A stretch of 32,000 bases of DNA from Candidatus Kuenenia stuttgartensis (GCF_900232105.1 NZ_LT934425.1:3690001-3722000); one strand, 5' to 3'. Positions 5,854 through 30,952 are shown, counted from the first letter of the stretch. The notes: generated by a model not told the origin, from the letters alone. Made by a program: numbers and translations.

Positions 5854-6016
5854 AACGTTTAGGAATTGCAATATTTATTTTTATTTAAGCAATGAACAAA
5901 CCCACCCCTAACCCCTTCCAACAGGGAACTTGTCAAATTCCCCTCTCGGGAGGGGATTGAGGGGTGGGTAAAAAATGAACGCCGTTGGGTTTTGTCTTTT
6001 GGAAACCCAACTTAAC
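5854..6016. repeat. composite intergenic repeat, copy 1 (GC-rich nested palindromes), flanked by 8-bp direct repeats AACTTAAC
   Basis: 5887-6016 matches 27745-27872 over about 130 bp at roughly 85% identity by eye, in the same orientation. 5854-5876 (aacgtttaggaattgcaatattt) matches 27584-27607. It contains the palindrome acccacccct..aggggattgaggggtgggt and the hairpin gttgggttt/aaacccaac. AACTTAAC occurs at 5849-5856 and 6009-6016. Confidence 0.8.
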
Positions 6017-6035
6017 TTAACCTTTGGCCAGATAA

Positions 6036-15970: not shown

Positions 15971-15998
15971 TAAAAAAATTTTAAATTATCTGTGAGAG

Positions 15999-16007
15999 TG
16001 AGTCTCA
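15999..16007. promoter_or_regulatory. TGAGTCTCA box, copy 2
   Basis: Context gtgagagTGAGTCTCAgtat, compared with copy 1 gtgagatTGAGTCTCAatat. It lies 10 nt upstream of the SD GGAGG (16018-16022) and the ATG at 16031. Confidence 0.5.
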
Positions 16008-16030
16008 GTATTATCAAGGAGGAGTATTTT

Positions 16031-17467
16031 ATGTTGTTTAAGAAAGTATTGTTGTCGTTTGGTTTTATGGGAATTTTGTATGGTGTGCAGTCATTGCCGC
16101 AGGATCACTCAATGGTTTTGGCGGCATCTATCAACGGTATTATAGTAGATGAAAATGGCGTTGGGATAGAGAAGGCCGAGGTGACGATTAAAGGGAAAAA
16201 AGGGCATGATAAGAAGCAAAAAATAAAAACAGATTCCGATGGGCTTTATGAGTTTACTGGACTGAAAAAAGGAAAATACACGATTAAGGTGACGTCTGTT
16301 GGATATAAAAACGGGAAGGAAAAAGTAAAGATTGGAAATAACGCAGATGATGTCGAGGGTGATTTTACATTGAATTTTGATGAATACGTGAAGACAAACG
16401 ACACTGAAACGATGGATGATGCCGTATCGGCTTTTCAGCAAATTGGCACATTGAGAAAAGAAGACCCTGTCAATATAGAAGAGATTGTATCTCTATATGA
16501 GGAATATTTACAGGATTTAACGCAGCAATTGGATAGTGAATATAGTCTGACCATGGACGAAGACCTGATTTCTGCAATGGGTGATATTGAAAATGATATT
16601 GACCCAAAGCTGGCAGGGCAGGTAATCGACAAAACGCTGCAACGGGTATTTTACCTGGCGATTTATGACAGAATTACAGAGGTCAACAATGATTTTGATG
16701 ACGAAAGTACTTCATATCTGGGAACATTATGGGATGAGGCATATGCTGCTTATCAGGCATTGTTTAGTACGGCAGACAGGGAAAATAAGGTGCTGACGGA
16801 GGACCGTTTGTCCATAGAAACAGGGAGTAATCCGAATCTTGAGGATGGGGTTACTGTTGCATTTATACGGGGAAAAGCAGCGTTAAATAAAAAAGATTTA
16901 GACGAAGACGAGATTACCGTAGGGGTCCAGAGGCAGGTTATCCGGTTATCCCTTATCAGGTCTTTCTATATTGCAGTATTGAGGGAAGTGGAGAGCATTA
17001 TCAATAATCGCGATACAGACCTTGAGAAGGCATTGGAATATCAGAAAGAAGGAGAAGTTTATTACAGAATCATCGAAGAATATGTTTCCCGTGATAATCC
17101 TTCCGGAAATGAGACGATAAAAAGCCAACTGACTGGCGATGTGTCGGAGGTAGATGCCGATACCATTGTAAGTGAAATGAGCAGGGGTTTTATTGGCCGG
17201 GTAGAAGGGGAGTTGGATGCTGCCGAATCCAACATAAGCGAAGGTGACCGTAAAGATGCCATGATTGTAGCTGAAGAGGCATTGCTTTATTCAGAAGTAT
17301 TTCTGGAAGATTTGGGATTACGGTTGGGTGATGATGCTATGGATGATATGGAAGATGCGCTCCATGATTTGAGGAATGCCAGCGATAAAATGAAAGCATC
17401 ATCTGCCGCATCCGCCATAGAAACAATCAGTTCACTTATTGAGAGTTACGAAAACGAATTGCTGTAG
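16031..17467 (+). CDS. secreted protein: CarboxypepD_reg-like domain plus about 370-aa highly acidic helical domain of unknown function
   Basis: The track ORF starts at GTG 15992, but I prefer the ATG at 16031, which has AAGGAGG 8 nt upstream and gives the signal peptide MLFKKVLLSFGFMGILYGVQS. The Ig-like domain (INGIIVDENGVGIEKAEVTIKG...DGLYEFTGLKKGKYTIKVTSVGY) is paralogous to that of the 15481 gene. Confidence 0.8.
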   Translation: MLFKKVLLSFGFMGILYGVQSLPQDHSMVLAASINGIIVDENGVGIEKAEVTIKGKKGHDKKQKIKTDSDGLYEFTGLKKGKYTIKVTSVGYKNGKEKVKIGNNADDVEGDFTLNFDEYVKTNDTETMDDAVSAFQQIGTLRKEDPVNIEEIVSLYEEYLQDLTQQLDSEYSLTMDEDLISAMGDIENDIDPKLAGQVIDKTLQRVFYLAIYDRITEVNNDFDDESTSYLGTLWDEAYAAYQALFSTADRENKVLTEDRLSIETGSNPNLEDGVTVAFIRGKAALNKKDLDEDEITVGVQRQVIRLSLIRSFYIAVLREVESIINNRDTDLEKALEYQKEGEVYYRIIEEYVSRDNPSGNETIKSQLTGDVSEVDADTIVSEMSRGFIGRVEGELDAAESNISEGDRKDAMIVAEEALLYSEVFLEDLGLRLGDDAMDDMEDALHDLRNASDKMKASSAASAIETISSLIESYENELL

Positions 17468-17629: not shown

Positions 17630-18616
17630 ATGAACAGAAATAAAAAGATTTATTCGATACTTTTTTTTTTGATACTGGCAACAGGGATTTCTGTAACGGC
17701 TTATTACAGGTCCGGAAATGCAGAAGAGCATTCTCAATATGAACATGCAAAATCGGATGTAAAAAACAAGTTAGGTAAAAAAAGCAAAAAGATTAGCTTT
17801 ACCAATGATATATTGCCGCTCTTTACTGAGCCACAAAAAAGAGGCGGTGAGGAATCGGTTGTATGCGTCAGATGCCATTTTACGAGTCTTACCATAGAAA
17901 GCAGCGGAATTCAGGAAAACGCCTTTGCAGAATTTAGCCTGGGGTCATATGCGGATATTATGGCAGGGGCTGACGCAGGTACAGAACCTATTATTGATAT
18001 TGAAGATCCTGATATAAGCTTGTTGTTGCAAAGGCTGGAGGGAAAGGGCGATGATATGGCGGCGGGCGACGCGCGCATGCCATACGGCGGCCCGTTTTTT
18101 AAAAAAAATAAAATCAAAAAAATCCGCACCTGGATAGAACAGGGGGCAATTGATGATACTCCGGAACCTGATTTTAATCGTGATGTACTTCCACTGTTGA
18201 CTAAATCGGTAAATGGCAATATTCCTTGCAGTCTATGTCACTATAATAATAATGATGCTAGTTCCAAAGAACGTTCGCCTGCTCAGGCATGCATGGATTT
18301 GACAAGTTGGGAGGGGATAATATCAGGTGCTGACGGGATTGAACACGAGGAACTTGTGGATAGAGAAAACCCATCGAATAGTTTACTAGTACGACGGCTG
18401 CGCGGTCAGGTAACGGAAGAGGAAAAAGAAAATGATCACAGAATGCCTTACGGAGGCCCCTATTTTAGCGAATATGAAATCCAGAAGATAGAGCGCTGGA
18501 TAGCCAGCGGGGCAAAGGGGCCTAATGGTGAGGATCCCAGTGAGGCAGACATCAGCGATGCAGGGGTATGTCCCGAAGGAAGTGGCAGCGGCAGCGGAAG
18601 TGGAAACGATAAATGA
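17630..18616 (+). CDS. dihaem Planctomycete-type cytochrome c (two PSCyt1-like repeats) with Gly/Ser tail
   Basis: 328 aa with AAGGAG 5 nt upstream and an N-terminal transmembrane/signal segment. It has two internal repeats, each with CxxCH (CVRCH, CSLCH) ... SLL(L/V)(Q/R)RL.G ... RMPYGGP(F/Y)F ... I..WI..GA, the pattern I recognise as the Planctomycete cytochrome C domain. It ends PEGSGSGSGSGNDK. Confidence 0.85.
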   Translation: MNRNKKIYSILFFLILATGISVTAYYRSGNAEEHSQYEHAKSDVKNKLGKKSKKISFTNDILPLFTEPQKRGGEESVVCVRCHFTSLTIESSGIQENAFAEFSLGSYADIMAGADAGTEPIIDIEDPDISLLLQRLEGKGDDMAAGDARMPYGGPFFKKNKIKKIRTWIEQGAIDDTPEPDFNRDVLPLLTKSVNGNIPCSLCHYNNNDASSKERSPAQACMDLTSWEGIISGADGIEHEELVDRENPSNSLLVRRLRGQVTEEEKENDHRMPYGGPYFSEYEIQKIERWIASGAKGPNGEDPSEADISDAGVCPEGSGSGSGSGNDK

Positions 18617-18942
18617 ATAGTGTACTTTCCGGGAAAACCGGCGGCAAAAAAAAAGAATGGAGGTGTGTTGTGTCAGCAATGGTAATAAGTAGTGCAGAGG
18701 GCTTTGCCGGTATGGCGAAACCACTCGAAGATTACGGTATTACAAATATTCATTTTTGTAGTGTTAAGGAGAGAACGGATTTGGACGCTACCGCAATTGC
18801 ATTTGTGCCGTTTGTTGATTTTATCATAGTAGGGAGAGATGCCGGTGGTTCTCCCTACCTCAATACTATACTGAAAGAAGCAAAAGAACTTCAGATACCA
18901 GTATTGCAAGAGAGCTGCATAGCGGAGCAGGGGAAAAAATGA
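18613..18942 (+). CDS. DUF2325-like small protein (paralogue of 27267..27584)
   Basis: The ATG at 18613 overlaps the upstream stop (ATGA). An alternative start is GTG 18670, 6 nt after GGAGG (18659-18663). From residue 23 it aligns by eye with the 27267 protein: MVISSAEGFAGMAKPLEDYGITNIHF / MSVLIVGGDHLGSIPKELDKIGVNDIKH, and VDFIIVGRD...KEAKELQIPV / MDFIIVLCD...EYASLKEIPV. Confidence 0.6.
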   Translation: MNSVLSGKTGGKKKEWRCVVSAMVISSAEGFAGMAKPLEDYGITNIHFCSVKERTDLDATAIAFVPFVDFIIVGRDAGGSPYLNTILKEAKELQIPVLQESCIAEQGKK

Positions 18943-19016
18943 GCCCTGAATAAAACGGGGAGCAATTACCATTTTCCTTGCTGCTATTGAATGGTGAAAT
19001 CCGAAGTCATCAACAC

Positions 19017-19112
19017 TCAATCTACAATCTACAGTCGGCAAATTGCAGATTGAGGACTGAGGACTAATGACTGTTTTTTTGCTTGTTTACTTCTGGCTAT
19101 GCCAGCTTAGGA
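19017..19112. repeat. heptamer/inverted-repeat module plus GCTTAGGAG terminus
   Basis: caatcta caatcta cagtcgg caaattgcagattgagga ctgagga ctaatga ... ttctggctatgccagcttaggag. It matches 15331-15386 and the terminus at 13541-13565. Confidence 0.75.
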
Positions 19113-19458
19113 GGGAAAATAAAAAATGAGAAGGTTTGCATATTGGTATCTCTTTTCTTTGACGGGTTTGTTGGTTATAAGTATGTTGTACGCATTAGTT
19201 TGATTGTATAGAAATTATTACGGAGTTATTCATCATGTATTATGTTTTTAAATTGTGTAAGGTGCTCTTTGTAGTAACGATGTAGTTTTTTGAAAAATTC
19301 CAATAATAGCGCTGCTTGCCGCATAGTGTAGGGGAGAAGCATTTGTTATAATCGGTTGCTGCTCGTTCCTCACTTGATATCTACGCCCACTAAATTCATG
19401 TAGTGCGACGAACCTCGTCGCACTACAAATGACAATTTCCAGTTTCAAAAGACTAAAG

Positions 19459-21341
19459 TGTTACTCTTTGTAACGGATGTTCACCCCTGCCAAAACGCAT
19501 AAGTGCTTAATACATAGTTTGTTAAGGCTGTATTTTTAATAAATATGTAGTCACTAATATATTGTTATTATACGACAATATACTTGACGGATAATGGTTG
19601 TTATCTGTACAATGGTGGACATGCATATTGTAGAGAACAAGTCAAAATCCGGTAAAAAAATCTATCGATCTACCCTTCTGCGGGAATCGTACCGTGAGGA
19701 TGGGAAGGTCAAGAAACGCACCATTGCGAATCTGTCGAATTGCACTCCCCTGGAGATTGAAGCGATAAGACTTGCACTCGCACATAAAGACGATCTCTGT
19801 GCATTGGGCGCATTGTCAGAATCGGTGAAACTCCATGAGGGTTTGTCTATGGGAGCAGCGTGGAGCGTGTACCAAGTGGCAAAGGAATTAGGGATAGAAG
19901 AGGCATTGGGAAAGGACTTTGAAGGAAAGCTGGCGCTTTGGCAAGTAATGGCAAGGGTAATAGGCCAGGGGTCAAGACTGTCTGCAGTAAGGCTGGCGCA
20001 GATACATGCTGCGGGTGACGTCCTGGATATGAAGCGTGGGTTTGACGAGAACAATCTGTACGATAATTTGTCATGGTTGTCAGAGAATCAGGCAAAGATA
20101 GAGCGAAAGCTGTTTGAGTTAAGACGAGGAGGCAATAAGCCGAAGTTGTTTTTGTATGACGTGACGAGCAGTTATTTAGAGGGGAAGTCGAATCATTTTG
20201 GTGAGTACGGGTATAATCGTGACGGCAAAAAGAGGAAAAAACAGATAGTGATCGGTATGCTTTGTGATGAATCCGGGGAGCCGGTATCAACAGAAGTATT
20301 TAGGGGCAACACCCAGGATCCGAAGACCTTTGAATCTCAGGTAAAGAAGGTATTAGAGCGGTTTGGATGCAAAGATGTAACGATTGTAGGAGATCGTGGG
20401 ATGATCAAGACGGTGCAAATCGAAAGTTTACCGGAAGGGTTTCATTACATAACGGCGATAACTAAGCCGCAGATAGAGTCGTTGATAAATAAAGGGATAC
20501 TGCAATTAGGATTGTTCGAAGAAAAGCTCTGCGAGATAAAGGATGATGAGGTTAGATATATTCTGAGGCGCAATCCGGTAAGGGCGGAAGAGATGTCAAA
20601 GACCCGTGTATCAAAATTACAGAGTATAGAGAAATACATCGTGAAGAAGAACAGTTATCTGAAGGAACATCCTAAGTCGTCAGTATCGAAGGCACTGGAA
20701 ACAACAAGGGAAAGGCTAACGAGATTGAAACTTGATGGGTGGGTGCAGATAAAAGAAGAGGATAGGACGCTAAAGATAGAGAGAGATGAGGAAGCATTAA
20801 AGGAGGCATCATACCTTGATGGTTGTTACGCAATCAAGACTGATCTTGAGGAGAACGAGGCGGATACCAATCTGGTACATGAACGATACAAGGATTTAAC
20901 GGAAGTGGAGAAGGCGTTTCGGGACTGTAAGACGGTGAATTTGGAGGTTCGTCCGGTGTATGTAAGAAAGGAGGATAGTACACGGGGACATGTGTTTGTG
21001 GTAATGCTTGCGTACATGATAATTCGAAGGCTGCGCAGAGCGTGGAAGAATTTTGACTTGACGGTAGAGGAAGGTCTCGCACAATTGACGACCATTTGTT
21101 CGATGGAAGTAACAATCAAAGGCCAAAAAGCTAGTTGCCAGAAGATCCCGCGTCCGCGGCAACAATCACATGAATTATTAGAGGCATTACAGATAAAGTT
21201 GCCAGAAGTATTGCCAAGCCGGAACATACGGGTAGTCACTAGAAAAAAGCTTGCTGTTCGGCGTAAAAGTCAATAAATATAAGGCTTTTACGGCACTTTT
21301 GTTTTTTGACTTGGGGTGAACATCCGTTGTAAGTAATAACA
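19459..21341 (+). mobile_element. IS1634-family (IS4-related) insertion sequence, about 1.88 kb, apparently intact
   Basis: A single 560-aa DDE transposase ORF is bounded by imperfect terminal inverted repeats: gttactctttgtaacggatgttcacccc (19460-19487) versus the reverse complement of 21313-21340, gttattacttacaacggatgttcacccc. That is 23/28 identical, including a perfect 16-bp inner run. No target-site duplication is recognisable, so the ends are uncertain to a few nt. Confidence 0.85.
19594..21276 (+). CDS. IS1634-family DDE transposase
   Basis: The N-terminus VENKSKSGKKIYRSTLLRESYREDGKVKKRTIANLS is typical of the family. Catalytic blocks are present: LFLYDVTSSYLEG, IVGDRGMI and YKDLTEVEKAFRDCK (the Y..R...E......K-like region). 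Alternative ATG starts lie at 19612 and 19621. Confidence 0.9.
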   Translation: MVVICTMVDMHIVENKSKSGKKIYRSTLLRESYREDGKVKKRTIANLSNCTPLEIEAIRLALAHKDDLCALGALSESVKLHEGLSMGAAWSVYQVAKELGIEEALGKDFEGKLALWQVMARVIGQGSRLSAVRLAQIHAAGDVLDMKRGFDENNLYDNLSWLSENQAKIERKLFELRRGGNKPKLFLYDVTSSYLEGKSNHFGEYGYNRDGKKRKKQIVIGMLCDESGEPVSTEVFRGNTQDPKTFESQVKKVLERFGCKDVTIVGDRGMIKTVQIESLPEGFHYITAITKPQIESLINKGILQLGLFEEKLCEIKDDEVRYILRRNPVRAEEMSKTRVSKLQSIEKYIVKKNSYLKEHPKSSVSKALETTRERLTRLKLDGWVQIKEEDRTLKIERDEEALKEASYLDGCYAIKTDLEENEADTNLVHERYKDLTEVEKAFRDCKTVNLEVRPVYVRKEDSTRGHVFVVMLAYMIIRRLRRAWKNFDLTVEEGLAQLTTICSMEVTIKGQKASCQKIPRPRQQSHELLEALQIKLPEVLPSRNIRVVTRKKLAVRRKSQ

Positions 21342-21345
21342 AACA

Positions 21346-22320
21346 ATGACTTCCATTGAATCAGGCATTAAGGCCTCTGTGCTTGGTATAATTATTAATA
21401 CAGCGCTGGCAATAATTAAAATCATTACCGGCATCATCGGGCATTCGTATGCATTAATTGCAGACGGCATTGAATCCACTACGGATGTCATCAGTTCTGT
21501 TATCGTATGGAGCGGCCTGAGAATAGCATCAGAACCTCCGGATGAAAAACACCCTTACGGGCATGGAAAGGCAGACTCTATTGCAGGACTGTTTGTTTCC
21601 ATGTTATTATTTGGGGCAGCCTTGTTTATTGCAGTTCATAGTATTAAAGATATTCTGGTTCCCCATAAAACACCTGAATGGTTTACGCTTATCGTATTAG
21701 TGTTTGTCATTGTAACAAAAGAAATACTCTTTCGGTTTGTTATTTCCATCGGAGATTCAATAGACAGTACCGCATTGCAAGGTGACGCATGGCATCATCG
21801 GGCTGACGCACTTACTTCAGCCGCGGCATTAATTGGTATTTCAATTGCTCTTATAGGCGGCAAAGGCTATGAAAGCGCAGACAGTTGGGCGGCTTTATTT
21901 GCATGTGTGATTATAACTTTTAACGGTATGAAACTTTTCAGGACAGCGCTCAATGAGGTAATGGATGCCTCAGCTCCGCAAACAATAAAAGATGAAACCA
22001 TTAGAATGGCAAAACAGGTAGAGGGTGTTTTATCGATCGGGAAATGCAGGATTAGAAAAAGCGGAATTACGCTGCTGGTAGATATTCATGTGCAGGTTGA
22101 AGGTGAGATGAGTGTAATGGAAAGCCATGCGATTGCACACCTGGTAAAAGACGAGCTGATTAATAAAAATGTAAATATCCGCGATGTGGTAGTGCATATA
22201 GAACCGTACCATTCTGATAAAATAAATGTAAAAGAATACAATGGACTTTCATTTTTTTCATATGTAAGCTCAATTTGGTTTTTATTACTTTTATTTGACA
22301 AAAAGGAGAATACCATATGA
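21346..22320 (+). CDS. cation diffusion facilitator (CDF) family divalent-metal transporter
   Basis: 324 aa with six transmembrane segments. The TM2 block is SYALIADGIESTTD and the TM5 block is WHHRADALTS (the metal-site H/D pairs of CDFs). A C-terminal cytoplasmic domain follows, then an extra hydrophobic tail. There is an in-frame TAA at 21337-21339, and the IS end lies 4-5 nt upstream of the ATG. Confidence 0.9.
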   Translation: MTSIESGIKASVLGIIINTALAIIKIITGIIGHSYALIADGIESTTDVISSVIVWSGLRIASEPPDEKHPYGHGKADSIAGLFVSMLLFGAALFIAVHSIKDILVPHKTPEWFTLIVLVFVIVTKEILFRFVISIGDSIDSTALQGDAWHHRADALTSAAALIGISIALIGGKGYESADSWAALFACVIITFNGMKLFRTALNEVMDASAPQTIKDETIRMAKQVEGVLSIGKCRIRKSGITLLVDIHVQVEGEMSVMESHAIAHLVKDELINKNVNIRDVVVHIEPYHSDKINVKEYNGLSFFSYVSSIWFLLLLFDKKENTI

Positions 22321-22386
22321 CTAATAATGCAGTATTTTATTGGTGGATTTTTTAAATAAACATTTATAAGAGGAAATTCGGGAGGG

Positions 22387-23478
22387 ATGGTTATGGGTAT
22401 TTTAAATACATTTAAAAAAGTATATGCAGTGACGGGTTTTTTTGCCTTGTTAGCAGTATTTTCTCTATCGCAGGTGGGGTCCTCTGCTTTTGCCGCGTGT
22501 GCAAAAGTAGATGATTGCTTTTCGTGTCATACCACACAAGAATTAAATGCAGTCCATAAAAATACTCCATACCAGGGACAAAGCTGTATTGTGTGTCACA
22601 AAGCTTTTGCTGCAGATGATACATGCTCAGACGCAAAAGATGGTAGATTCGCAAAAATTTCATCTGAAATAAACATCAACAAAGAAGATTGGAACAAAAT
22701 TCAACGTGCAGTCCATGAGACAACAGAAAAGCATCTTGTAGGGAGAAAATTCTTAAACATTTACGGACCACTTGGAACAGGCGCCCAGAGTGTGCCACTT
22801 GATACGTATGGCCTGCCATCATGGGCAAGCATTGATATGCTGGGCGAGGGCAATGAGGCGATACATCCCCTTAAGAGGGAAATTGCTCAAATATACCTTA
22901 TTTACAAAGACTTTTGGCTTTTCCGGAGAGATATTGAGTTCAGCAAAAAGTGTGAGACGCCCATTGATATAAGTGCTGCAATAGGAGCTGCGGTGTCTGT
23001 TTCCAGGAAAGAGGACGACATGGTTTTTAACGGTTTGTCTGAGATGGGCATTCCGGGGCTTTTGACTGCAAGCGGCAGGAATATAATGAAACTCAGTGAT
23101 TGGTCAGTTATTGGAAACGGCTTTCAGGATGTTGTATTGGCAGTAGAGAAACTGACAAGCAGGGGTTTTAATGGCCCGTTTGCTTTGGTAGTGAGTCCAA
23201 AGTTGTATGCATATCTCCACAGGGTTTATGAGCGTACAGGACAATTAGAGATACAGGGGGTAAAAGAGTTGGTAAACGGGGGTGTTTATCAGAGCTACGT
23301 TTTTAATAAAGATGTGGCGCTCGTAATTGCAACGGGCAGTCTGAATATGGACCTTGCCGTAGGGAGCAATTATAAAGTAGAGTACTGGGGCCCTCAGGAT
23401 CTGAACCACCGGTTCAGGGTTGTGGGGAGTTCTGTGCTCAGGATTAAATGTCCGCAGGCAATTTGTACATTGGAGTAG
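22387..23478 (+). CDS. family-1 encapsulin shell protein with N-terminal Sec signal peptide and dihaem cytochrome c domain
   Basis: 363 aa. Residues 1-37 are signal-peptide-like (...SQVGSSAFA|A). Residues 38-90 carry two CxxCH motifs (CFSCH, CIVCH). Residues about 95-363 match the encapsulin/Linocin-M18 pattern along their full length (EDWNKIQRAVHETTEKHLVGRKFLNIYGPLG..., ...FNGPFALVVSPKLYAYLHRV..., ...YKVEYWGPQD...FRVVGSSVLRIK). The SD GGGAGGG (22380-22386) favours the second ATG at 22393. Confidence 0.9.
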   Translation: MVMGILNTFKKVYAVTGFFALLAVFSLSQVGSSAFAACAKVDDCFSCHTTQELNAVHKNTPYQGQSCIVCHKAFAADDTCSDAKDGRFAKISSEININKEDWNKIQRAVHETTEKHLVGRKFLNIYGPLGTGAQSVPLDTYGLPSWASIDMLGEGNEAIHPLKREIAQIYLIYKDFWLFRRDIEFSKKCETPIDISAAIGAAVSVSRKEDDMVFNGLSEMGIPGLLTASGRNIMKLSDWSVIGNGFQDVVLAVEKLTSRGFNGPFALVVSPKLYAYLHRVYERTGQLEIQGVKELVNGGVYQSYVFNKDVALVIATGSLNMDLAVGSNYKVEYWGPQDLNHRFRVVGSSVLRIKCPQAICTLE

Positions 23479-23481
23479 GTT

Positions 23482-26040
23482 ATGCTTAACAAATCAGCGG
23501 CTTTAGTGCCTGTGGTGCTGGCTTTCCTTTTCCTTTTTCTGTGTTTTCAATGTTTATACGCTGACATCCGCTGTCTTACCGGTAAGGATGGTGCTGTGCA
23601 TTTGGAGATGGAGGCCAAACCCTTAACAATAGAGCCAAGGCCCGGCGTGTTCTTTGATGCCTGGGGGTATTGCCTGAAAGGTGACGTACCCACCGTACCC
23701 GGCCCTGTCATAAAGGTAAGGGAAGGAACTAAGGTTAAGATTCTCTTCAGGAATAAACTGACAGTTCCTGCCTCTATCCACCCTCACGGAGTTAAATATA
23801 CCACCGCCAATGTCGGCGTTAATATTGCCGGGAATCCAGCAAGTATTGTAGCGCCTGGGGATTCAAGGATTTTTGAGTGGGATACTGCCGGCACGCCAGG
23901 CACGTGGTTTTACCACTCCTACGTATTTGAGAGAGGCGGCGAAGAGGGATTATCCAGAGGATTATGGGGAGCGCTTATTGTGGAACCGGTTGGCGGTGAT
24001 CCAAATCCTCCGGATAAAGAGTTTGTGGTATTTATGCATGCATTTAATGTAAACGGACAGGAATACTATGCCTTTAACAATAAATCAGGCGATATTGAGC
24101 TTATGAGGGGAGACAGTTCCGCATTTCCAGGAGAAACATGGAAGGCAAAAATGGGGGACAAGGTAAGGTTTCATCTCATAAATATTACGGAGGAAGCACA
24201 CACTTTTCATACCCACGGGCATCGCTGGCTGGATAAATCTTGTGATAAGCTTATTGATACTATCGGGTTGAATCCATTTGACTCTTATGTCCTGGATTTC
24301 GTTGCCGGTGAAGGTGTGGGGAAGGGTAACTGGGCTTTTCACTGCCAGTCACAGGAACATATGATGAACGGCATGTTCGGTATTTTTATGGTTGAGGAAG
24401 GGAAAAGGGTCAATGCTGTGATTGCATCGTGCGATGAAGGTAGGAAAACACTCAGTGCGCCTGGCCAGGATAGACAGCCTCCAACGCTTGAGGGTTTTTC
24501 AGGTGCTTACATGTATCCGGAAATTACAGAGAAAAACATGTATGAATCATTTGCAGGCTTAGAAAAGGGTGACGGCATTTGGGGTGATTATTATAGCCCT
24601 ATTCCGCTTTATACCTATTTTAATCCTTCACGGCATTATGTTCCTCCGGAAAGCGACGCTTATACAAATCTACTGGTGAAATACAGGCCGGATCAGTGCG
24701 TAGAATGCCATGAGGAAACAACACCTGGTATTGTTGCCGAATGGAAAATGTCCAACCATGCAAATCCAAAGAAAAACCCGCATGTATCCGCTGAGACGCA
24801 GGAGATAGAGGCATTAATCGGGAAAGAGCTGAACAACTGGCGGCCTGGCACAAAGGACGGTGTGTATTGTTCTTACTGCCATGGTTCCGATCATGAAAAA
24901 CTCTTTATGCCCACAGTTGACAATTCATGCGGAGCCTGTCATCCAAAACAAGCAGCGGAATTTATAAAAGGGAGAGATCATGGAAGGCCAAACCACCCTC
25001 AAAGCTGGGAAGGGAATGTATCTACTCCATGGTATGCTGAATACTATCGGCGAGGCGAGGGATATTCTATGGTGGGGTGCGATCAATGCCACCAAAACAT
25101 GTCTTCATGTGATGATTGCCATTCACGCCACCGTTTTTCCGCGGCTGAAGCCCGAAGGCCCGAAGCATGTTCAATTTGTCATATGGGACCTGACCACCCC
25201 GATTGGGAGAGTTATTCACGTTCCAAATGGGGGGTAATTTATGAGACTACAAAAGAGCGGTGGAATTGGGACAAAAACCTTGCGGAGGTTATTCCCGGGG
25301 AAGATTATCTGGCGCCGACTTGTCAATATTGTCATATGTACGTTGGAAATAATAAATGGGAAATGAATGTGGAAACAAAGGGTATATGGCGCATGGGAGT
25401 CATTCCCCCAAAGGAAGTGGAATTTAAATCAGGACTAAAAGACTTCCCCTATGGAATAAAAATACCGCCCATGGATAAAAAACTTGAAATCTATTCTGCT
25501 GAAAGCCAGGAAAAACGCCGCAAATGGGTGGAGCTTTGTTCAAAATGCCATAGCAGCCGCTTTGCCGGCATGTGGCTTGATTCGTTAGACCAATATATGT
25601 TTGAATCATGGCGGCGGATAGACGAAGCGCAGCTTATTATAGAAAAACTTTTTAGTGAGAATGCAATTGAACCTCCTCCGGAGAAAAGGCCTCCCTTTCC
25701 CCTCAGTGATTTGATTATTAAGGTGCTTGGCGCTGAAAAACTGGGGGCTGAAATGTACAGGCTATTTAAACAAACCAACGGGCATTTACCGGTGATAGGC
25801 CCCATTCTTGGCGCTTATTCTATTTTTACCCAAAATGAAGGGAATCCTGGCGGCATAGAAAGGGAATATGCGGAGATGTGGTTCTGGAGCCATTTGCAAG
25901 GTTATAAAGGCGCTGCTCACGCCCAGCCGGATATAAGCTGGTGGTGGGGTACTGCTCAGGGAGTCGGGAATCTGACTCGTATACGGGATGAGGCTGAAAA
26001 ATTAAGACGTTTAAAATCCGGTAGCAGTTCAGGCTTTTGA
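23482..26040 (+). CDS. fusion protein: NirK/multicopper-oxidase-like two-cupredoxin domain plus octahaem hydroxylamine-oxidoreductase (HAO)-like domain; presumptive encapsulin cargo
   Basis: 852 aa, starting 3 nt after the shell gene's stop, with SD GGAG at 23471-23474 inside that gene. Signal peptide: MLNKSAALVPVVLAFLFLFLCFQCLYA. Copper motifs: IHPHG, WFYHSY, HTFHTHGH and HCQSQEHMMNGM. Eight CxxCH motifs lie between nt 24697 and 25551 (CVECH, CSYCH, CGACH, CDQCH, CDDCH, CSICH, CQYCH, CSKCH). The protein ends ...EKLRRLKSGSSSGF. Confidence 0.9.
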   Translation: MLNKSAALVPVVLAFLFLFLCFQCLYADIRCLTGKDGAVHLEMEAKPLTIEPRPGVFFDAWGYCLKGDVPTVPGPVIKVREGTKVKILFRNKLTVPASIHPHGVKYTTANVGVNIAGNPASIVAPGDSRIFEWDTAGTPGTWFYHSYVFERGGEEGLSRGLWGALIVEPVGGDPNPPDKEFVVFMHAFNVNGQEYYAFNNKSGDIELMRGDSSAFPGETWKAKMGDKVRFHLINITEEAHTFHTHGHRWLDKSCDKLIDTIGLNPFDSYVLDFVAGEGVGKGNWAFHCQSQEHMMNGMFGIFMVEEGKRVNAVIASCDEGRKTLSAPGQDRQPPTLEGFSGAYMYPEITEKNMYESFAGLEKGDGIWGDYYSPIPLYTYFNPSRHYVPPESDAYTNLLVKYRPDQCVECHEETTPGIVAEWKMSNHANPKKNPHVSAETQEIEALIGKELNNWRPGTKDGVYCSYCHGSDHEKLFMPTVDNSCGACHPKQAAEFIKGRDHGRPNHPQSWEGNVSTPWYAEYYRRGEGYSMVGCDQCHQNMSSCDDCHSRHRFSAAEARRPEACSICHMGPDHPDWESYSRSKWGVIYETTKERWNWDKNLAEVIPGEDYLAPTCQYCHMYVGNNKWEMNVETKGIWRMGVIPPKEVEFKSGLKDFPYGIKIPPMDKKLEIYSAESQEKRRKWVELCSKCHSSRFAGMWLDSLDQYMFESWRRIDEAQLIIEKLFSENAIEPPPEKRPPFPLSDLIIKVLGAEKLGAEMYRLFKQTNGHLPVIGPILGAYSIFTQNEGNPGGIEREYAEMWFWSHLQGYKGAAHAQPDISWWWGTAQGVGNLTRIRDEAEKLRRLKSGSSSGF

Positions 26041-26085
26041 AAAAGCAAAGGCATTCGTTGGCAGGATTTTAAGTTTTTTATATGT

Positions 26086-27192
26086 ATGAGCGTGTTAAGA
26101 GTGTTGAACCGTCGTTACAAAAATCGATATTTTCAGATGAATAATTGTGTGAATTACAAAAAAGAGATAGTTAAAAATAGCATAAAATGGCTCTTCCCCA
26201 TAGCATTGCCGTTTGTTATTTATTGGGTTTTATTTTCGAAAATGAGGCCGGAAGATTTTCTCGTTACGATAAAAAATGCGTCTGTTCTCTGGTTAGCATT
26301 AGGGTTTATTGCCTATAGCGCAAACCAGGCATTTCGCACATTACGTTTTCAATGCCTTATCCACACAAAAAAGACATTGAGAAAACAATTGTTCCGGGTG
26401 CAGTCATTATACATTTTTTATAACTACTTGCTGCCTTTTAGGACCGGAGAGGCTACGTATATATATCTTGCGCGAAAGCATTTGAACATTCCTGTGGCGA
26501 ACGGTATCTCTTCCCTTGTGGTTGCAAGGATGTTTGATTACTCACTTCTTATTGTATGTTGCGGGATAATAGCATTATGTATGAAATTGCGCATGACACC
26601 CTGGATAAGCATGCTAATGAAAGGCGGGGCAGTATTGTTTTTTGCGATTACCGCATTGTTTATTTTGTGCATGTTAAGGAAGAATACCTATGTGGTATGG
26701 ATAGGGGAAAAAAGTAATTTTTTCGCTTTGTGGCAGGAAAATAAATTAATCCAAAAATTTTCAGGAGAGTTTCAGAAAATTGTACAGAGCTTCAGGGAAA
26801 TCAGTAATATCAGGACAGGCCTTCAAACCGTTTTTTATACACTATGTACCTGGTTGTGCATATTCCTGGCTTTTTATATGATTACCAGGGGATTAGGGTA
26901 TTCTGTAAGCTTTTTGCAGATGACAGCCGTATCGGTTATCGCCGTAATGTCAAGGGCGTTTCAGGGGGTCGCGGATTTTGGTTCACACGAGATGGGATGG
27001 TTCGGAGGACTGGTGCTTATCGGGTTTTCAGGGAAAGACGCCAGTATCGTATCTTTTTCATCACACATAATTATACTGTGTTATATGCTGGTTGTTACCA
27101 TTTATTCAAAAATTACTTTGAGAAAATACGATGCTATCGCAGCGGCGCCATGTATTTTGAAAGAAAGATATGGAAGGAGCGTCGGAGAATAA
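26086..27192 (+). CDS. UPF0104 / lysylphosphatidylglycerol-synthase-TM-region (flippase-like) family integral membrane protein
   Basis: 368 aa with about 8 transmembrane segments. It contains the family block AFRTLRFQCLI...NYLLPFRTGEATYIYLARKH. The start is uncertain (ATG 26086 or ATG 26137). It lies 45 nt downstream of the fusion gene. Confidence 0.75.
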   Translation: MSVLRVLNRRYKNRYFQMNNCVNYKKEIVKNSIKWLFPIALPFVIYWVLFSKMRPEDFLVTIKNASVLWLALGFIAYSANQAFRTLRFQCLIHTKKTLRKQLFRVQSLYIFYNYLLPFRTGEATYIYLARKHLNIPVANGISSLVVARMFDYSLLIVCCGIIALCMKLRMTPWISMLMKGGAVLFFAITALFILCMLRKNTYVVWIGEKSNFFALWQENKLIQKFSGEFQKIVQSFREISNIRTGLQTVFYTLCTWLCIFLAFYMITRGLGYSVSFLQMTAVSVIAVMSRAFQGVADFGSHEMGWFGGLVLIGFSGKDASIVSFSSHIIILCYMLVVTIYSKITLRKYDAIAAAPCILKERYGRSVGE

Positions 27193-27197
27193 TTTTA

Positions 27198-27225
27198 TTG
27201 ACAATCAGATTTTTTTTAGTATTAT
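27198..27225 (+). promoter_or_regulatory. sigma-70-like promoter of the DUF2325 gene
   Basis: TTGACA (27198-27203), a 16-nt spacer, then TATTAT (27220-27225). The TTGACAAT hexamer context and layout are the same as at 10230. Confidence 0.4.
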
Positions 27226-27233
27226 ATTGCGAA

Positions 27234-27242
27234 TGAGTCTCA
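27234..27242. promoter_or_regulatory. TGAGTCTCA box, copy 3
   Basis: Context gcgaaTGAGTCTCAataac. It lies 8 nt after the -10 hexamer and 12 nt before the SD GGAGG (27255-27259). Confidence 0.5.
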
Positions 27243-27266
27243 ATAACAATATTTGGAGGATTGAAA

Positions 27267-27584
27267 ATGTCTGTATTGATAGTGGGCGGCGATCATCTGG
27301 GGAGTATTCCAAAGGAGCTTGATAAAATAGGGGTGAATGATATAAAACATCTGGCTGGGAGAAGCAATCAAAAGATGCGAAACAGCATTCCTGAGTCAAT
27401 GGATTTTATTATTGTATTGTGTGATTACGTGAACCATAACCTTTCACACAAAATTAAAGAGTATGCAAGTTTGAAGGAAATACCTGTTGTTTATGCAAAA
27501 AGATCATGGTCGTCCATTTATCAAAAGATAAAGGATAACCAGTGTCAGCTTAAAAAGAAGGGGTTGCTGTTCCCACTTAATTAA
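27267..27584 (+). CDS. DUF2325 domain-containing protein
   Basis: MSVLIVGGDHLGSIPKELDKIGV.DIKHLAGR...MDFIIVLCDYVNH matches my recollection of the DUF2325 family. The ATG at 27267 lies 7 nt after GGAGG; the track start at TTG 27261 is less likely. Confidence 0.8.
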   Translation: MSVLIVGGDHLGSIPKELDKIGVNDIKHLAGRSNQKMRNSIPESMDFIIVLCDYVNHNLSHKIKEYASLKEIPVVYAKRSWSSIYQKIKDNQCQLKKKGLLFPLN

Positions 27585-27872
27585 ACGTATAGGAATTTTC
27601 AATATTTTTGTAGAGACGCATTACATGCGTCTCTACAAAAAATGTTATGGAATTTCAAAGTTGTAGAACGAAGCGATTGCTTCGTTACGAGCGAAGTGGT
27701 GCTTTGCTTTGCATTGATGTATTGGAGTTTCAAATTTTTAGTCAAGCAATGAACAAACTCACCCATTAATCCCCTCCCAAGAAGGGACTTGTCAAATTCC
27801 CCTCTTGGGAGGGGCCAGGGGGTGAGTAAAATTGAATGCCGTTGGTTTTTGTCTTTTAAAAACTCAACTTAA
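27584..27872. repeat. composite intergenic repeat, copy 2, with extra hairpin modules inserted
   Basis: 27584-27607 and 27745-27872 match 5854-5876 and 5887-6016. Between them lie a 16-bp-stem hairpin ttttgtagagacgcat-tac-atgcgtctctacaaaa (27606-27640) and an aacgaagc/gcttcgtt hairpin. ACTTAA flanks both sides (27575-27580 and 27867-27872). Confidence 0.8.
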
Positions 27873-27995
27873 AAGAAACAATTCTCATTTTCTCGCTAAA
27901 AAGAGGGGATAAAGAGGGGGCAGTGGGTTAAATAGTTATAAAAATTACTAATGTTTGGTGAACCATGAGGAGCAGTTATTGATTAAAGTAATATT

Positions 27996-28658
27996 ATGAC
28001 AAGACAAAAGGCAAATATCCATGAAGTAATTGATATTGTCGTAAATATTTTAAATGCAAGGGATCCATACACCTCTATTCATTCATGGCGCGTTGCTGAA
28101 TTGTCAGTGATGATTGCAAATGAAATGGCATTGCCGGAGAATGAAAAAGAAATAATACATATAGCAGCACATTTGCACGATATAGGCAAGATAGGTATAT
28201 GCGATAAGATATTAAATAAACCTGGAAAACTGACCATTGAAGAAAAAAAAGAAATACAGGCACATCCACGGATAGGTTGTAATATTCTGAAAAGATTGCC
28301 GTTGTTTGGGGATATATCATGGATAGTGCTTCACCATCATGAACGTTTTGACGGACTGGGTTATCCGGAAGGCATTAAAGGGGGAGGCATTCCTCTGGCC
28401 TCGAGAATAATTTCTGTGGCAGACGCCGTTGATGCAATAATTGCAGGCCGTTCCTATAGAAGGGCAAAAAACATAGAGGAATGTTTCGGGGAGATTGAGC
28501 TTCATACCGGGAGCCAGTTTTGTCCAACAGTAATAAGCCACATGATGAAGATACAAAATGAAATAGAAGTGGTATTAAATAAATTAAAAACAGAAGAAAT
28601 AAAACATTATGCCTTTGTGGGGCATGAAGAATTAATGCACTCAAGGAGATTGATTTAG
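27996..28658 (+). CDS. stand-alone HD-GYP domain protein (putative c-di-GMP phosphodiesterase)
   Basis: 220 aa with HSWRVAEL..., HLHDIGKIGI, LHHHERFDGLGYPEG and SVADAVDA, which are the full set of HD-GYP signature blocks. There is no sensor domain. The SD is weak. Confidence 0.9.
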   Translation: MTRQKANIHEVIDIVVNILNARDPYTSIHSWRVAELSVMIANEMALPENEKEIIHIAAHLHDIGKIGICDKILNKPGKLTIEEKKEIQAHPRIGCNILKRLPLFGDISWIVLHHHERFDGLGYPEGIKGGGIPLASRIISVADAVDAIIAGRSYRRAKNIEECFGEIELHTGSQFCPTVISHMMKIQNEIEVVLNKLKTEEIKHYAFVGHEELMHSRRLI

Positions 28659-28660
28659 TT

Positions 28661-30952
28661 ATGAAATATAATACTACTCTAAAGATAACCATTGTGTTTT
28701 TCATTGTATCTGTTTTTCTTTGCAAGGGCGCCTTTGCCGGTGTTTCATATACGTTGAGCAGAAATGCGGACTTTTCTACGGATGACAGGGCTTTTCTCGC
28801 CACGGATACCCTCTTTGTGAAGATATCACAAAATAAGTATGACTATCATGACGTTACAAAATCTGTTTTTACTTTAAAAGAAAAGGGTAAAAACTCAAAA
28901 AATGAATTTGAATTAACCTGGAATACGGCTCAAAGCGCGTTCACAGGTTCAGTTTCGTTCGGTGATTATGAGGTTGGCAAAAAAATAACAATCAAGATAC
29001 TACTGGAATGGAAAGATTATAAAATCAGAAAAAAAGCGCGTCTTGTGGTAGGTACGTATGAAACGTGGGAGATTGCCGGAACCGTTTATGATAAATATTC
29101 AGGTAATATAAAAGATGCCCGGGTAAGGATACAGGGGATGGCGGATATTAATAAAAATGATGAGAGCTATTATCCGGAAGATGAAGCACACTATGTGCTC
29201 TCTGACGAAGACGGAAGTTTTTTAATTACATACGAGGGCATTTCCGGACAGGAAGTCATAGTTGCCGCAGGCAAAGAAGGATTTAAAAATGCGGGTAAAG
29301 AAATAATTTTGGGGGAGGATGATTTTGCAGAGATTGCCCTTTCAACGTTTCCGGAGAAAGACCATTCTGATTATGAATACCGGACGAGTAAAAATTGTAA
29401 AAAGTGTCACAGTAATATTTATAATGAATGGAATGACAGCGAGATGGCAGCCTCGGCGATGAATCCGATAAATCAACTGAACTTTCTTTTATATACCGCA
29501 TGGTACGTGACGGGTGACCGCTCAAATTTTGAAGATGATTCAATCTTTAACGATCCGAATCCTGAATTTGTAGGCGATAAGGGGAAAATATTTGAAGACG
29601 ACACCGGCAGATATAAGATTCTCGGAGACGCGGGGAATCTTCACGATTGCGCTGATTGTCATTCTCCTTCGTTTGCATCCGGTTTACAGGGCGACGGTAA
29701 GACACCAAAATGGGATATGAGGGCAGGTGTTTTGACTGATGTTGATAATTTATCTTCAATAGACAAACAGGGTGTTCATTGTGATTTTTGTCATAAGATT
29801 CAAAATGTGCATGATGGGGAAGAGTATTGGACGGAACCAGGCGTGAATTATAAAGTTGACCTTTTACGTCCCGATCCTTCCCTGGAATCCTCAAAAGAGG
29901 GGAAGGTGATGTTTGGGCCTTTTGACGATGTTACATATAAAAGTATGCAGGCATCGTACGTTCCTCTGTTTAAAAAGAGTGAAATATGCACCTCCTGCCA
30001 TCAGGATGCACGGAAATTATATTTACAACCGGTAGACGAAAATGATCAACCTACGGGCGAAGAAACCATTGAGAGAATATTATGGAGTGAAGATACATAT
30101 CGCGAATGGAGATTTAGCGGTTATAGCGGATTGGAAGAAGATTATCCGGTAAACAATTATGCAGGGCGGGCGCTGCAGTGTCAGGATTGCCATATGAAAG
30201 ACCCACCCCCTGACCCCGCAACGGGCAAATCTATTGCAAATTATAAAGAGGTCACAGATTCATTTTATATGTTGTCCGAAGACAAAAAGCAGTCGGGGAC
30301 CAGCCGCGACCCCAGAACCATATATCCTCACCATTTTGAAGGAACCAATCAAAACCTTCCGGTTGGCGAAAAGAAACGATATCTTGATTGGGCGGTGGAT
30401 CTTTCAGTTTCGAATGCCAGTGTCACTGATGGTATTGTCAGTTTTGATGTGGATGTGAAAAATTCACATACGGGTCATGCTTACCCATCCGGTGTTACGC
30501 AACGAAATGTCGTTTTATATGTGGAAGTAACGCAAACAGGAAATTCTCTTAGTCAAACCAATGATCAAGTCGTTGATACCCCGGGAGGAAATTTCCCGAA
30601 TGGCTATTATAATGGTGAAGGAGACTATGCAGGGAAGTCGGGCAAAATATTCATAAAACATAACAGGATGCTTGAAGATAACAAGGATCTGGATCCTTTT
30701 TTCAATGATATATTGTATGCCTTTGCCGTTGAGGAATTGTACGATACGCGCATCAAGGCGAATGAGACAGACACCACACACTATGAGTTCCAAACACTGG
30801 ACAACAGCACAATAACCATCACTGCAAGGCTTATTTACCGCTTTTATCCGAAAGGAACGCTTGAATTTGCGGCGCAAAACGGATATGTGATTTCTTCCCT
30901 GGAGGAAAATGATTATGAATCGCATAAAGTGGAAATAACCGTAGAGCCGTAA
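28661..30952 (+). CDS. secreted pentahaem cytochrome c with CarboxypepD_reg-like Ig domain
   Basis: 763 aa starting 2 nt after the HD-GYP stop. Signal peptide: ...VSVFLCKGAFA|G. Five CxxCH motifs: CKKCH, CADCH, CDFCH, CTSCH and CQDCH. The first is in the c554-like context CKKCHSNIYNEW. An Ig-like domain is present at WEIAGTVYDKYSGNIKDARVRIQG...DGSFLI. Confidence 0.88.
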   Translation: MKYNTTLKITIVFFIVSVFLCKGAFAGVSYTLSRNADFSTDDRAFLATDTLFVKISQNKYDYHDVTKSVFTLKEKGKNSKNEFELTWNTAQSAFTGSVSFGDYEVGKKITIKILLEWKDYKIRKKARLVVGTYETWEIAGTVYDKYSGNIKDARVRIQGMADINKNDESYYPEDEAHYVLSDEDGSFLITYEGISGQEVIVAAGKEGFKNAGKEIILGEDDFAEIALSTFPEKDHSDYEYRTSKNCKKCHSNIYNEWNDSEMAASAMNPINQLNFLLYTAWYVTGDRSNFEDDSIFNDPNPEFVGDKGKIFEDDTGRYKILGDAGNLHDCADCHSPSFASGLQGDGKTPKWDMRAGVLTDVDNLSSIDKQGVHCDFCHKIQNVHDGEEYWTEPGVNYKVDLLRPDPSLESSKEGKVMFGPFDDVTYKSMQASYVPLFKKSEICTSCHQDARKLYLQPVDENDQPTGEETIERILWSEDTYREWRFSGYSGLEEDYPVNNYAGRALQCQDCHMKDPPPDPATGKSIANYKEVTDSFYMLSEDKKQSGTSRDPRTIYPHHFEGTNQNLPVGEKKRYLDWAVDLSVSNASVTDGIVSFDVDVKNSHTGHAYPSGVTQRNVVLYVEVTQTGNSLSQTNDQVVDTPGGNFPNGYYNGEGDYAGKSGKIFIKHNRMLEDNKDLDPFFNDILYAFAVEELYDTRIKANETDTTHYEFQTLDNSTITITARLIYRFYPKGTLEFAAQNGYVISSLEENDYESHKVEITVEP

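Follow-up and report, generated by a model that had tools for sequence, protein, structure and literature searches.

What might an anammox bacterium gain from a protein shell that bears haem, is exported and is encoded immediately ahead of an enzyme of the hydroxylamine oxidoreductase (HAO) family? The question is raised by a 32,000-nucleotide stretch of the Candidatus Kuenenia stuttgartiensis genome (GCF_900232105.1 NZ_LT934425.1:3690001-3722000), which we call the window and in whose numbering all of its positions are given. Positions 22,387 to 26,040 hold two adjacent genes, one for a family-1 encapsulin fused to a dihaem cytochrome c module and one for a multicopper oxidase (MCO) domain fused to an octahaem HAO domain. 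Our answer is that the pair probably specifies an exported, haem-lined shell enclosing an MCO-HAO trimer that converts hydroxylamine or nitrite reductively. Anammox removes a large share of the fixed nitrogen in the oceans and in wastewater, and the function of this shell, known as cEnc, bears on how anammox bacteria handle hydroxylamine and nitric oxide (NO). To our knowledge, cEnc is the sole encapsulin that is exported, haem-bearing and adjoined by the gene of an HAO-family enzyme.

It should be said at once that this is the rediscovery of a known system. By exact-sequence look-up both proteins are, letter for letter, those of Candidatus Kuenenia stuttgartiensis: the shell reading frame is identical to UniRef100_Q1Q6L7 ('Diheme-cytochrome-encapsulin shell fusion protein') and that of the putative cargo to QII12968.1 ('Probable nitrite reductase-hydroxylamine oxidoreductase fusion protein'). 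The signal peptides quoted in the Methods of Giessen & Silver, MVMGILNTFKKVYAVTGFFALLAVFSLSQVGSSAFA and MLNKSAALVPVVLAFLFLFLCFQCLYA (CAJ73224.1), match the N-termini of the two frames, and the window therefore holds kuste2478/kuste2479, published as 'cEnc' and 'NIR-HAO'. The locus, its architecture and the hypothesis proposed for it were first described in 2016/17, and that hypothesis has been partly tested. An earlier, sequence-only reading of this DNA noted that genome mining in anammox planctomycetes had flagged the pair, which was identified in four anammox genomes (Giessen & Silver 2016/17, bioRxiv 10.1101/085266). Its belief that there was no structure, cargo proof or function is outdated: 33-nm shells, haem spectra, copper-domain co-purification, AlphaFold models and the activity of an orthologue have all been published. 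The new material here comprises copper-site degeneracy beyond K. stuttgartiensis, shells that lack the dihaem module, a probable tandem pair of shell genes, and the joining of the cEnc literature to that on BpMHAO, the cargo orthologue of Ca. Brocadia pituitae.

The shell gene and its partner

What kind of shell is this? The sequence-only reading had assigned the C-terminal 270 residues or so to the family-1 encapsulins, and had named a profile search as a way in which the assignment might fail. That search supports it over nearly the whole model: the score with the NCBIfam equivalog NF041155 ('family 1 encapsulin shell protein') is 237.3 bits, where the cut-off is 100 (residues 96-362, model positions 7-261/261), and Pfam Linocin_M18 (PF04454) matches residues 96-346 with an E-value of 2e-59. 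Among 36 encapsulin matches in the Protein Data Bank (PDB), the best is Myxococcus xanthus EncA (4PT2, E 1.5e-70, residues 96-363, 43.9% identity), and 44% identity to a solved structure fixes the shell fold; AlphaFold2 (AF2), run on the mature protein as a single sequence with no alignment, gave a model too poor to use (mean pLDDT 34.7). A phage capsid was also considered and is ruled out by the NF041155 score, by the conserved redox cargo next door and by the lack of phage morphogenesis genes, no terminase, portal or protease being found among the open reading frames (ORFs) of the window. The K. stuttgartiensis protein made in E. coli forms 33-nm particles by transmission electron microscopy (TEM), which were treated as 180-mers, the shell without its cytochrome domain forms 29-nm particles, and spectra of cEnc reveal c-type haem that dithionite can reduce (bioRxiv 10.1101/085266). 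A 2024 review has added AlphaFold models of the protomer and a proposal of electron transfer across the shell.

Each of the two proteins begins with a signal peptide, a feature that the sequence-only reading passed over. In the case of cEnc, the same 36 residues were removed as a SignalP-predicted signal peptide by Giessen & Silver (bioRxiv 10.1101/085266), and the literature terms the peptide Sec-type (June 2026 preprint; Andreas & Giessen 2021). Next comes the haem module, where the two CxxCH motifs stand as claimed and the claimed size of about 55 residues does not, since after the signal peptide the module measures about 42 (residues 37-78); a short linker reaching residue 95 then leads into the encapsulin domain. 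An alignment of six orthologues shows C2, D7, CxxCH, H21 and CxxCH as conserved positions. We queried all PDB chains with the module by phmmer and with a profile built from the 6 sequences, and neither search found a solved dihaem homologue; the best match, 6LOD (E 0.015), reflects generic CxxCH spacing. The idea that the module is a homologue of Kustc0457, the dihaem partner docked on the closest HAO paralogue in 6H5L, would explain cargo loading and is not supported, as neither Kustc0457 nor any dihaem cytochrome was matched, although a haem domain this small can mask true homology. One cEnc orthologue (L009, 2864-4222) has CLSFH, not CLSCH, as its second haem motif and would be expected to form a single thioether link there; this is either an error in a metagenome-assembled genome (MAG) or a genuine variant. 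As for the start of cEnc, it is probably ATG 22393, because the Shine–Dalgarno (SD) sequence GGGAGGG abuts ATG 22387 directly, with no spacer, and because the 361-aa NCBI form ('MULTISPECIES: family 1 encapsulin nanocompartment shell protein [Kuenenia]') is this sequence begun at the Met of the later codon.

The two genes are separated by 3 nt, the shell gene stopping with TAG at 23476-23478 and the cargo gene starting with ATG at 23482. The cargo SD, GGAG at 23472-23475, lies within the final shell codons, 6 nt ahead of that ATG, so that both the spacing and the embedded SD are as the sequence-only reading had them.

What, then, is the enzyme? The proposed fusion of a two-cupredoxin domain with an eight-CxxCH HAO domain is borne out by matches to Cu-oxidase_3, Cu-oxidase_2 and Multi-haem_cyto (PF13447, E 4e-49) and by CxxCH motifs at residues 406, 463, 483, 533, 543, 563, 614 and 686. 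The wider claim, of a copper/HAO enzyme converting nitrite, NO or hydroxylamine, is supported in every sequence-level element examined, with the caveat that the copper half is of the small-laccase two-domain type and not NirK-like. In the PDB this half is matched best by two-domain laccases (E 2e-34), and alignment with these places a complete set of T1 (type 1) copper ligands in domain 2 (H240, C288, H293, M298). NirK was tried as the identity of this domain and rejected, the NirK model TIGR02376 scoring 60.3 bits against a cut-off of 296.3 and the T1 site belonging to the second cupredoxin domain where NirK has it in the first; the name 'NIR' is thus misapplied. On its sequence, the copper part is assigned to the type-B two-domain multicopper oxidases, with NirK excluded, and the BpMHAO preprint likewise describes its copper domain as a type-B two-domain MCO and records that Kuenenia has Tyr and Gln in place of two of the His (bioRxiv 10.64898/2026.07.28.741245). 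Those replacements leave six of the eight trinuclear-cluster histidines (H100/H102, H145 followed by Y147, H243/H245, H287 followed by Q289): the HPH and HTFHTH motifs are whole, HSY stands for HxH (WFYHSY replacing WHYHDH) and HCQ for HCH. Because two of the eight are lost, oxidase chemistry that reduces O2 is unlikely, and the Kuenenia domain, though MCO-like, is probably unable to act as an O2-reducing oxidase. In place of 'NIR', the domain should be called an MCO of small-laccase type whose cluster is degenerate.

The HAO half is matched by PDB entries 6H5L, 4FAS, 4N4J and 6HIF, and most closely by Kustc0458 (6H5L_A, E 4e-164, 50.6% identity over 493 residues). Trp822 occupies the position of the cross-linking Tyr467 of Nitrosomonas europaea HAO in a locally weak alignment, and the SWWWG stretch that contains it is common to the cargo and to Kustc0458, which has no cross-link. 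With no cross-link tyrosine, and with the HDH model NF052343 scoring 139 against a cut-off of 900, the sequence places the cargo in the reductive HAOr subgroup and not with the oxidative enzymes (HAO, HOX, HDH). Giessen & Silver, too, expected reductive catalysis from an HAO domain without this tyrosine (bioRxiv 10.1101/085266).

Table 1. Positions of the shell and cargo genes, their parts and their neighbours in the window (aa, amino acids)
Feature	Position	Strand	Basis or remark
cEnc (kuste2478): signal peptide, dihaem cytochrome c module, family-1 encapsulin	22387..23478	+	363-aa ORF
cEnc Sec-type signal peptide, aa 1-36, MVMGILNTFKKVYAVTGFFALLAVFSLSQVGSSAFA	22387..22494	+	KK n-region, hydrophobic core, AFA/A cleavage site
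Dihaem cytochrome c module, aa 37-78 (~42 aa)	22495..22620	+	two CxxCH
Haem motif CFSCH, cEnc aa 44-48	22516-22530	+	motif scan
Haem motif CIVCH, cEnc aa 67-71	22585-22599	+	motif scan
HK97-fold family-1 encapsulin domain, aa 96-363, EncA-like large-shell (T=3) type	22672..23475	+	profile and PDB matches
Shell/cargo junction: GGAG, TAG, 3-nt gap, cargo ATG	23472..23484	+	sequence
MCO-HAO fusion (kuste2479, 'NIR-HAO'), putative cargo	23482..26040	+	852-aa ORF; Cu-oxidase_3, Cu-oxidase_2, Multi-haem_cyto
Cargo signal peptide, aa 1-27, MLNKSAALVPVVLAFLFLFLCFQCLYA	23482..23562	+	same 27 residues removed in Giessen & Silver
Two-cupredoxin type-B two-domain multicopper-oxidase-like domain, aa ~38-307	23593..24402	+	laccase alignment
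Octahaem HAO-like domain, reductive HAOr type, aa 352-845	24535..26016	+	6H5L_A match; eight CxxCH
CDF cation-efflux transporter	21346..22320	+	nearest FieF/MamB/MamM, below their equivalog cut-offs; Fe2+-type
Flippase-like / LPG_synthase_TM membrane protein	26086..27192	+	45 nt downstream of cargo gene; conserved downstream in K. hertensis (L014)
DUF2325 protein	27261..27584	+	Pfam DUF2325, E 2e-16

Proposed cargo loading and chemistry of the compartment

How might such a compartment be built and run? We think that both proteins would be exported unfolded via their Sec-type signal peptides, most likely into the anammoxosome, a location that draws on proteomics: as cited in the literature, the anammoxosome proteome includes the encapsulin at a low level. 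Cytochrome c maturation machinery in that compartment would attach haem to the 2 + 8 CxxCH sites, and mature cEnc would self-assemble into an HK97-fold shell of about 33 nm and 180 subunits (T=3), of which assembly and size are published. By analogy with family-1 structures the N-termini should face the lumen, presenting up to 180 dihaem modules (360 haems) to it. MCO-HAO would trimerise, because both of its domain families are obligate trimers, and its capture would involve no canonical C-terminal targeting peptide; the full-length protein presumably enters by its copper domain, with the dihaem module roughly doubling the loading, as was seen in E. coli for the isolated copper domain. Indeed, this domain co-purifies with cEnc shells at about 30 copies per 180-mer, and loading drops to about 15 copies once the dihaem domain is removed (bioRxiv 10.1101/085266).

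Inside, the HAO domain would work reductively on small N-oxides entering through the shell pores, because it has no haem–Tyr cross-link (Trp822). The reaction would most likely be hydroxylamine reduction, as in the B. pituitae orthologue, where the HAO domain in cell extracts reduces hydroxylamine robustly and nitrite-reductase activity is absent from both domains (bioRxiv 10.64898/2026.07.28.741245). An alternative, nitrite to NO, is suggested by the closest solved paralogue, Kustc0458, which carries out that reaction and does not oxidise hydroxylamine or hydrazine. Electrons would be delivered by the dihaem modules of the shell, possibly via the T1 copper, and the Kuenenia copper domain is probably a scaffold, a loading domain or a point of electron entry. 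The net effect would be to keep hydroxylamine and NO chemistry together with its electron supply and apart from the rest of the anammoxosome. Other papers cite Xing et al. 2020 on resistance to hydroxylamine stress. The enclosed trimer, haem relay and confinement of the sequence-only reading are essentially those of the published hypothesis; co-purification of the copper domain agrees with the first of these, whereas encapsulation of the full-length enzyme, the relay and the confinement are things that we infer.

Another role was the original published suggestion of sequestration or detoxification (bioRxiv 10.1101/085266), in which a haem-lined shell, with or without cargo, would scavenge NO and protect the proteins of the anammoxosome. 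Enzymes of the Kustc0458 type can reduce NO, albeit as a non-physiological substrate. However, cEnc-expressing E. coli was not protected from the NO donor NOC-18, whether oxygen was present or not (June 2026 preprint), in a test that involved the shell only and a host with NO reductases of its own, and we regard NO scavenging as the purpose of the shell as very improbable indeed.

Several points weigh against an enclosed, reductive MCO-HAO, and the failure to protect against NO is one of them. We know of no particle in vivo that has been identified as the cEnc compartment. Full-length NIR-HAO was insoluble in E. coli (bioRxiv 10.1101/085266), and the encapsulation of the real cargo has therefore never been demonstrated. 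The copper-domain loading published for E. coli is low, and about half of it persists without the dihaem module. Five related shell genes, described below, have no such module at all, so that a haem relay is not indispensable. The hydroxylamine-reductase activity of BpMHAO was assayed in cell extracts with an artificial donor (bioRxiv 10.64898/2026.07.28.741245). Finally, NIR-HAO has been described as lacking a targeting peptide (bioRxiv 10.1101/085266), and in a 12-sequence alignment we found no canonical one at the cargo termini or in the interdomain linker. The cargo C-terminus is the HAO C-terminal helix, which aligns with Kustc0458 to residue 845 of 852 and leaves seven extra residues, and its conserved RIxDEAxKLxRLK is part of that helix and is found in Kustc0458 too. 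Loading must therefore use another contact.

Might the two proteins be neighbours in the genome and nothing more? MCO-HAO would then be a free trimer in the anammoxosome and the shell an independent haem particle, perhaps an electron sink or a carrier of other cargo such as the nearby cytochromes, the two being co-regulated as a redox couple. The missing targeting peptide, the full-length cargo never observed within shells and a copper-domain loading both low and mostly independent of the dihaem module are all in keeping with this, as are gaps of about 150-300 nt between the genes in several Brocadia loci and the B. pituitae enzyme study, which makes no mention of encapsulins (bioRxiv 10.64898/2026.07.28.741245). 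Yet the copper domain does co-purify with shells, and no other neighbour has a targeting peptide, a scan for GSL-type motifs and targeting-peptide-like termini finding none on the neighbouring proteins, that of DUF2325 included. Gene order also argues against mere adjacency. We scanned one genome per species and collected 16 related loci (Brocadia, Jettenia, Loosdrechtia, K. hertensis and other Brocadiaceae), and in 15 of them MCO-HAO comes next after the shell gene, while the sixteenth stops at a contig end. This order spans at least five genera-level lineages and is kept even where the dihaem module has been lost. The gap is 3 nt, pointing to translational coupling, in seven loci (beyond the window, L002, L004, L009, L012, L014 and L015), and in Brocadia it widens at some loci to about 300 nt. 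A survey likewise counted nine cytochrome-fusion systems, every one in anammox bacteria and with an adjoining NIR-HAO (Andreas & Giessen 2021). On balance we consider it unlikely that the enzyme remains outside the shell.

Related loci and neighbouring genes

Are the haem module and the intact copper cluster kept everywhere? The related loci say not. Five shell genes (L010 3480-4481, L011 6004-7005, L012 453-1481, L013 1998-3005 and L014 6004-7005) retain a signal peptide and a low-complexity linker and have no CxxCH module; in the accounts that we surveyed, cytochrome-less shells are confined to Scalindua, whose variants were added by Tracey et al. 2019 in an article that also summarises the arguments from the anammoxosome proteome and from iron-rich particles. 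Four of the five (L010, L012, L013, L014) directly precede an eight-haem MCO-HAO gene, their hosts being a Brocadia sp., Ca. Loosdrechtia aerotolerans, a Brocadiaceae MAG and Ca. Kuenenia hertensis. In the L010 copy an in-frame TAG takes the place of the Trp of SWASVDML, which marks either a pseudogene or an assembly error.

After the fifth, from a lake MAG (M_DeepCast_100m_m2_243; VGXX01000143/VGXX01000269), comes a second shell gene, with which the contig ends: in the tandem at L011 6004-7722 the haem-free copy (6004-7005) comes first and, 279 nt downstream, a dihaem-bearing copy runs off the contig. Another contig of the same MAG (L016 1-2938) opens with a shell C-terminus identical to that of the first copy save for 1 aa, and continues with MCO-HAO and then DUF2325. 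The two contigs probably break at a shared repeat, and the order implied for this genome is probably thioredoxin-like gene, haem-free shell, cEnc, MCO-HAO, DUF2325; possibly, such an organism could build mixed shells.

The copper site is equally variable. Alignment shows HTL and YCQ in the K. hertensis cargo (L014 7009-9525), with five of the eight cluster histidines left, and HCN in the Loosdrechtia cargo (L012 1485-4103), where the T1 His is also replaced by Arg (HCNPGERVINGM). Every copper ligand, including all eight cluster histidines, is retained in the Brocadia and Jettenia orthologues. Because the copper cluster decays in Kuenenia and Loosdrechtia, the dihaem module is lost in five shells and one MAG apparently has shell genes in tandem, one may ask whether these accessory redox modules are evolutionarily optional, the conserved job of the copper domain being structural (trimer scaffold, cargo loading) and shells being made of mixed protomers. 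We put this forward tentatively and think it rather unlikely. If true, shells that mix haem-bearing with haem-free protomers would offer a tunable electron supply. Neither the structural copper domain nor the mixed shell appears in the published cEnc and BpMHAO accounts that we surveyed.

The gene upstream of cEnc raises a further possibility. A CDF transporter gene, whose K. hertensis counterpart (L014) is 84% identical, lies 66 nt before the shell gene and may be co-transcribed with it. It may also be relevant to an iron-handling compartment, in which the shell would store or mineralise iron in the anammoxosome, the MCO domain would serve as ferroxidase and the transporter would supply Fe(II). 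The nearest solved shells, those of M. xanthus EncA and its relatives, store iron, the literature reports iron-rich particles of about 25 nm in the anammoxosome and suggests a link with cEnc, the CDF protein is FieF/MamB-like and its gene is a neighbour in K. hertensis too, and the B. pituitae MCO domain, weak both as laccase and as ferroxidase, oxidises Fe2+ with O2 at 0.24 U/mg (bioRxiv 10.64898/2026.07.28.741245). However, this ferroxidase activity is O2-dependent and is deemed non-physiological in an anaerobe by the authors themselves; the trinuclear cluster is short of two of its eight histidines in K. stuttgartiensis and of three in K. hertensis; the CDF neighbour is a Kuenenia-specific link, missing from the Brocadia, Jettenia and Loosdrechtia shell loci; the haems alone could account for an iron signal; and the conserved octahaem HAO domain is left unexplained. 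Iron handling is thus quite improbable in our view, and we keep to a reductive enzyme within a haem-lined shell.

The remaining neighbours can be dealt with briefly. In most related loci the shell gene has a thioredoxin-like gene before it; tblastn found no such gene in the window. The K. hertensis order is CDF, thioredoxin-like gene, shell, MCO-HAO, flippase-like gene, and by comparison K. stuttgartiensis has therefore lost the thioredoxin-like gene and retained the CDF and flippase-like genes. The DUF2325 protein appears in a published operon figure as a possible secondary cargo, and its gene is likewise downstream of the cargo in L016. A scan of 18600-28700 for promoters and terminators gave no more hits than shuffled controls (19 against 25±5 and 11 against 7.9±2.9), from which no operon boundaries can be read.

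Further upstream, an IS1634-family insertion sequence occupies 19459-21341, with 29-nt terminal inverted repeats (83% match) and a transposase ORF at 19594..21276 (NF033559, 308 bits), and stops 4 nt before the CDF gene. It splits the shell cluster from 15992..17467 and 17630..18616, which are upstream shell neighbours in Brocadia loci L004 and L015. The second of these (17630-18616), kept near the shell gene in both loci, encodes a secreted protein of 328 aa with two CxxCH, two similar halves (an internal duplication) and a GSGSGSGSG tail; it has no family match other than a weak one to CTI and probably corresponds to the 'c1' that the published figure shows as a putative secondary cargo. At 1866-3227 a UshA-like metallophosphoesterase domain (NF041198, 244 bits, slightly below the cut-off of 275) is fused to a C-terminal tetrahaem cytochrome c554-like domain, and this product probably corresponds to 'c554', which the literature names as a putative secondary cargo, though its gene lies 19 kb upstream of the shell gene. 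At 27996-30952, an HD-domain (HD_5) gene stops 2 nt before the gene for a secreted pentahaem cytochrome of 763 aa and no defined family, a spacing that suggests a translationally coupled pair.

Comparison with known systems

How does the pair compare with what is known? With the published K. stuttgartiensis cEnc/NIR-HAO it shares proteins, gene order and domain architecture with no difference, the name 'NIR' alone overstating the similarity to NirK. NirK is also a trimeric two-cupredoxin copper protein and gives the cargo a weak profile match (TIGR02376, E 2e-16), but its T1 ligands are in domain 1, whereas the T1 Cys, His and Met of the cargo are in domain 2, and the BpMHAO copper domain does not reduce nitrite. 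Small laccases (SLAC type; 8AIP, 3CG8, 3TAS) are nearer, sharing two cupredoxins, a domain-2 T1 site and an inter-subunit cluster site that implies a trimer. Unlike them, the cargo has two of eight cluster histidines replaced, an octahaem fusion and a strictly anaerobic host, in which their chemistry of O2 reduction is implausible.

Of the solved shells, M. xanthus EncA (4PT2, T=3, iron storage) shares the HK97-fold domain end to end and a similar particle size of 32-33 nm. EncA has neither a signal peptide nor a cytochrome fusion, whereas cEnc is exported and haem-fused, and EncA loads ferritin-like cargo via C-terminal targeting peptides of the LTVGSL type, of which the Kuenenia cargo has none. 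The Kustc0458/Kustc0457 complex (6H5L) shares with the cargo eight haems, Trp in place of the cross-link Tyr and 50.6% identity in the HAO domain; each system pairs an HAOr with a dihaem cytochrome, and the kustc0456-0458 cluster also has a cupredoxin partner. There, however, the partners are separate soluble proteins in an α6β6 complex, whereas here the copper domain is fused to the HAO and the dihaem module to the shell, and that module has no detectable sequence similarity to Kustc0457.

An orthologue of the cargo whose enzymology has been studied is BpMHAO (bioRxiv 10.64898/2026.07.28.741245), about 70% identical (L007) with the same MCO and HAO domains and, again, no tyrosine. It has all eight cluster histidines, where the Kuenenia cargo has Tyr147 and Gln289 in two of the positions, and its gene lies directly downstream of a cEnc gene at a gap of about 300 nt, as against 3 nt in Kuenenia. 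The cEnc literature and the BpMHAO enzymology do not cite each other, and together they point to an encapsulated hydroxylamine reductase.

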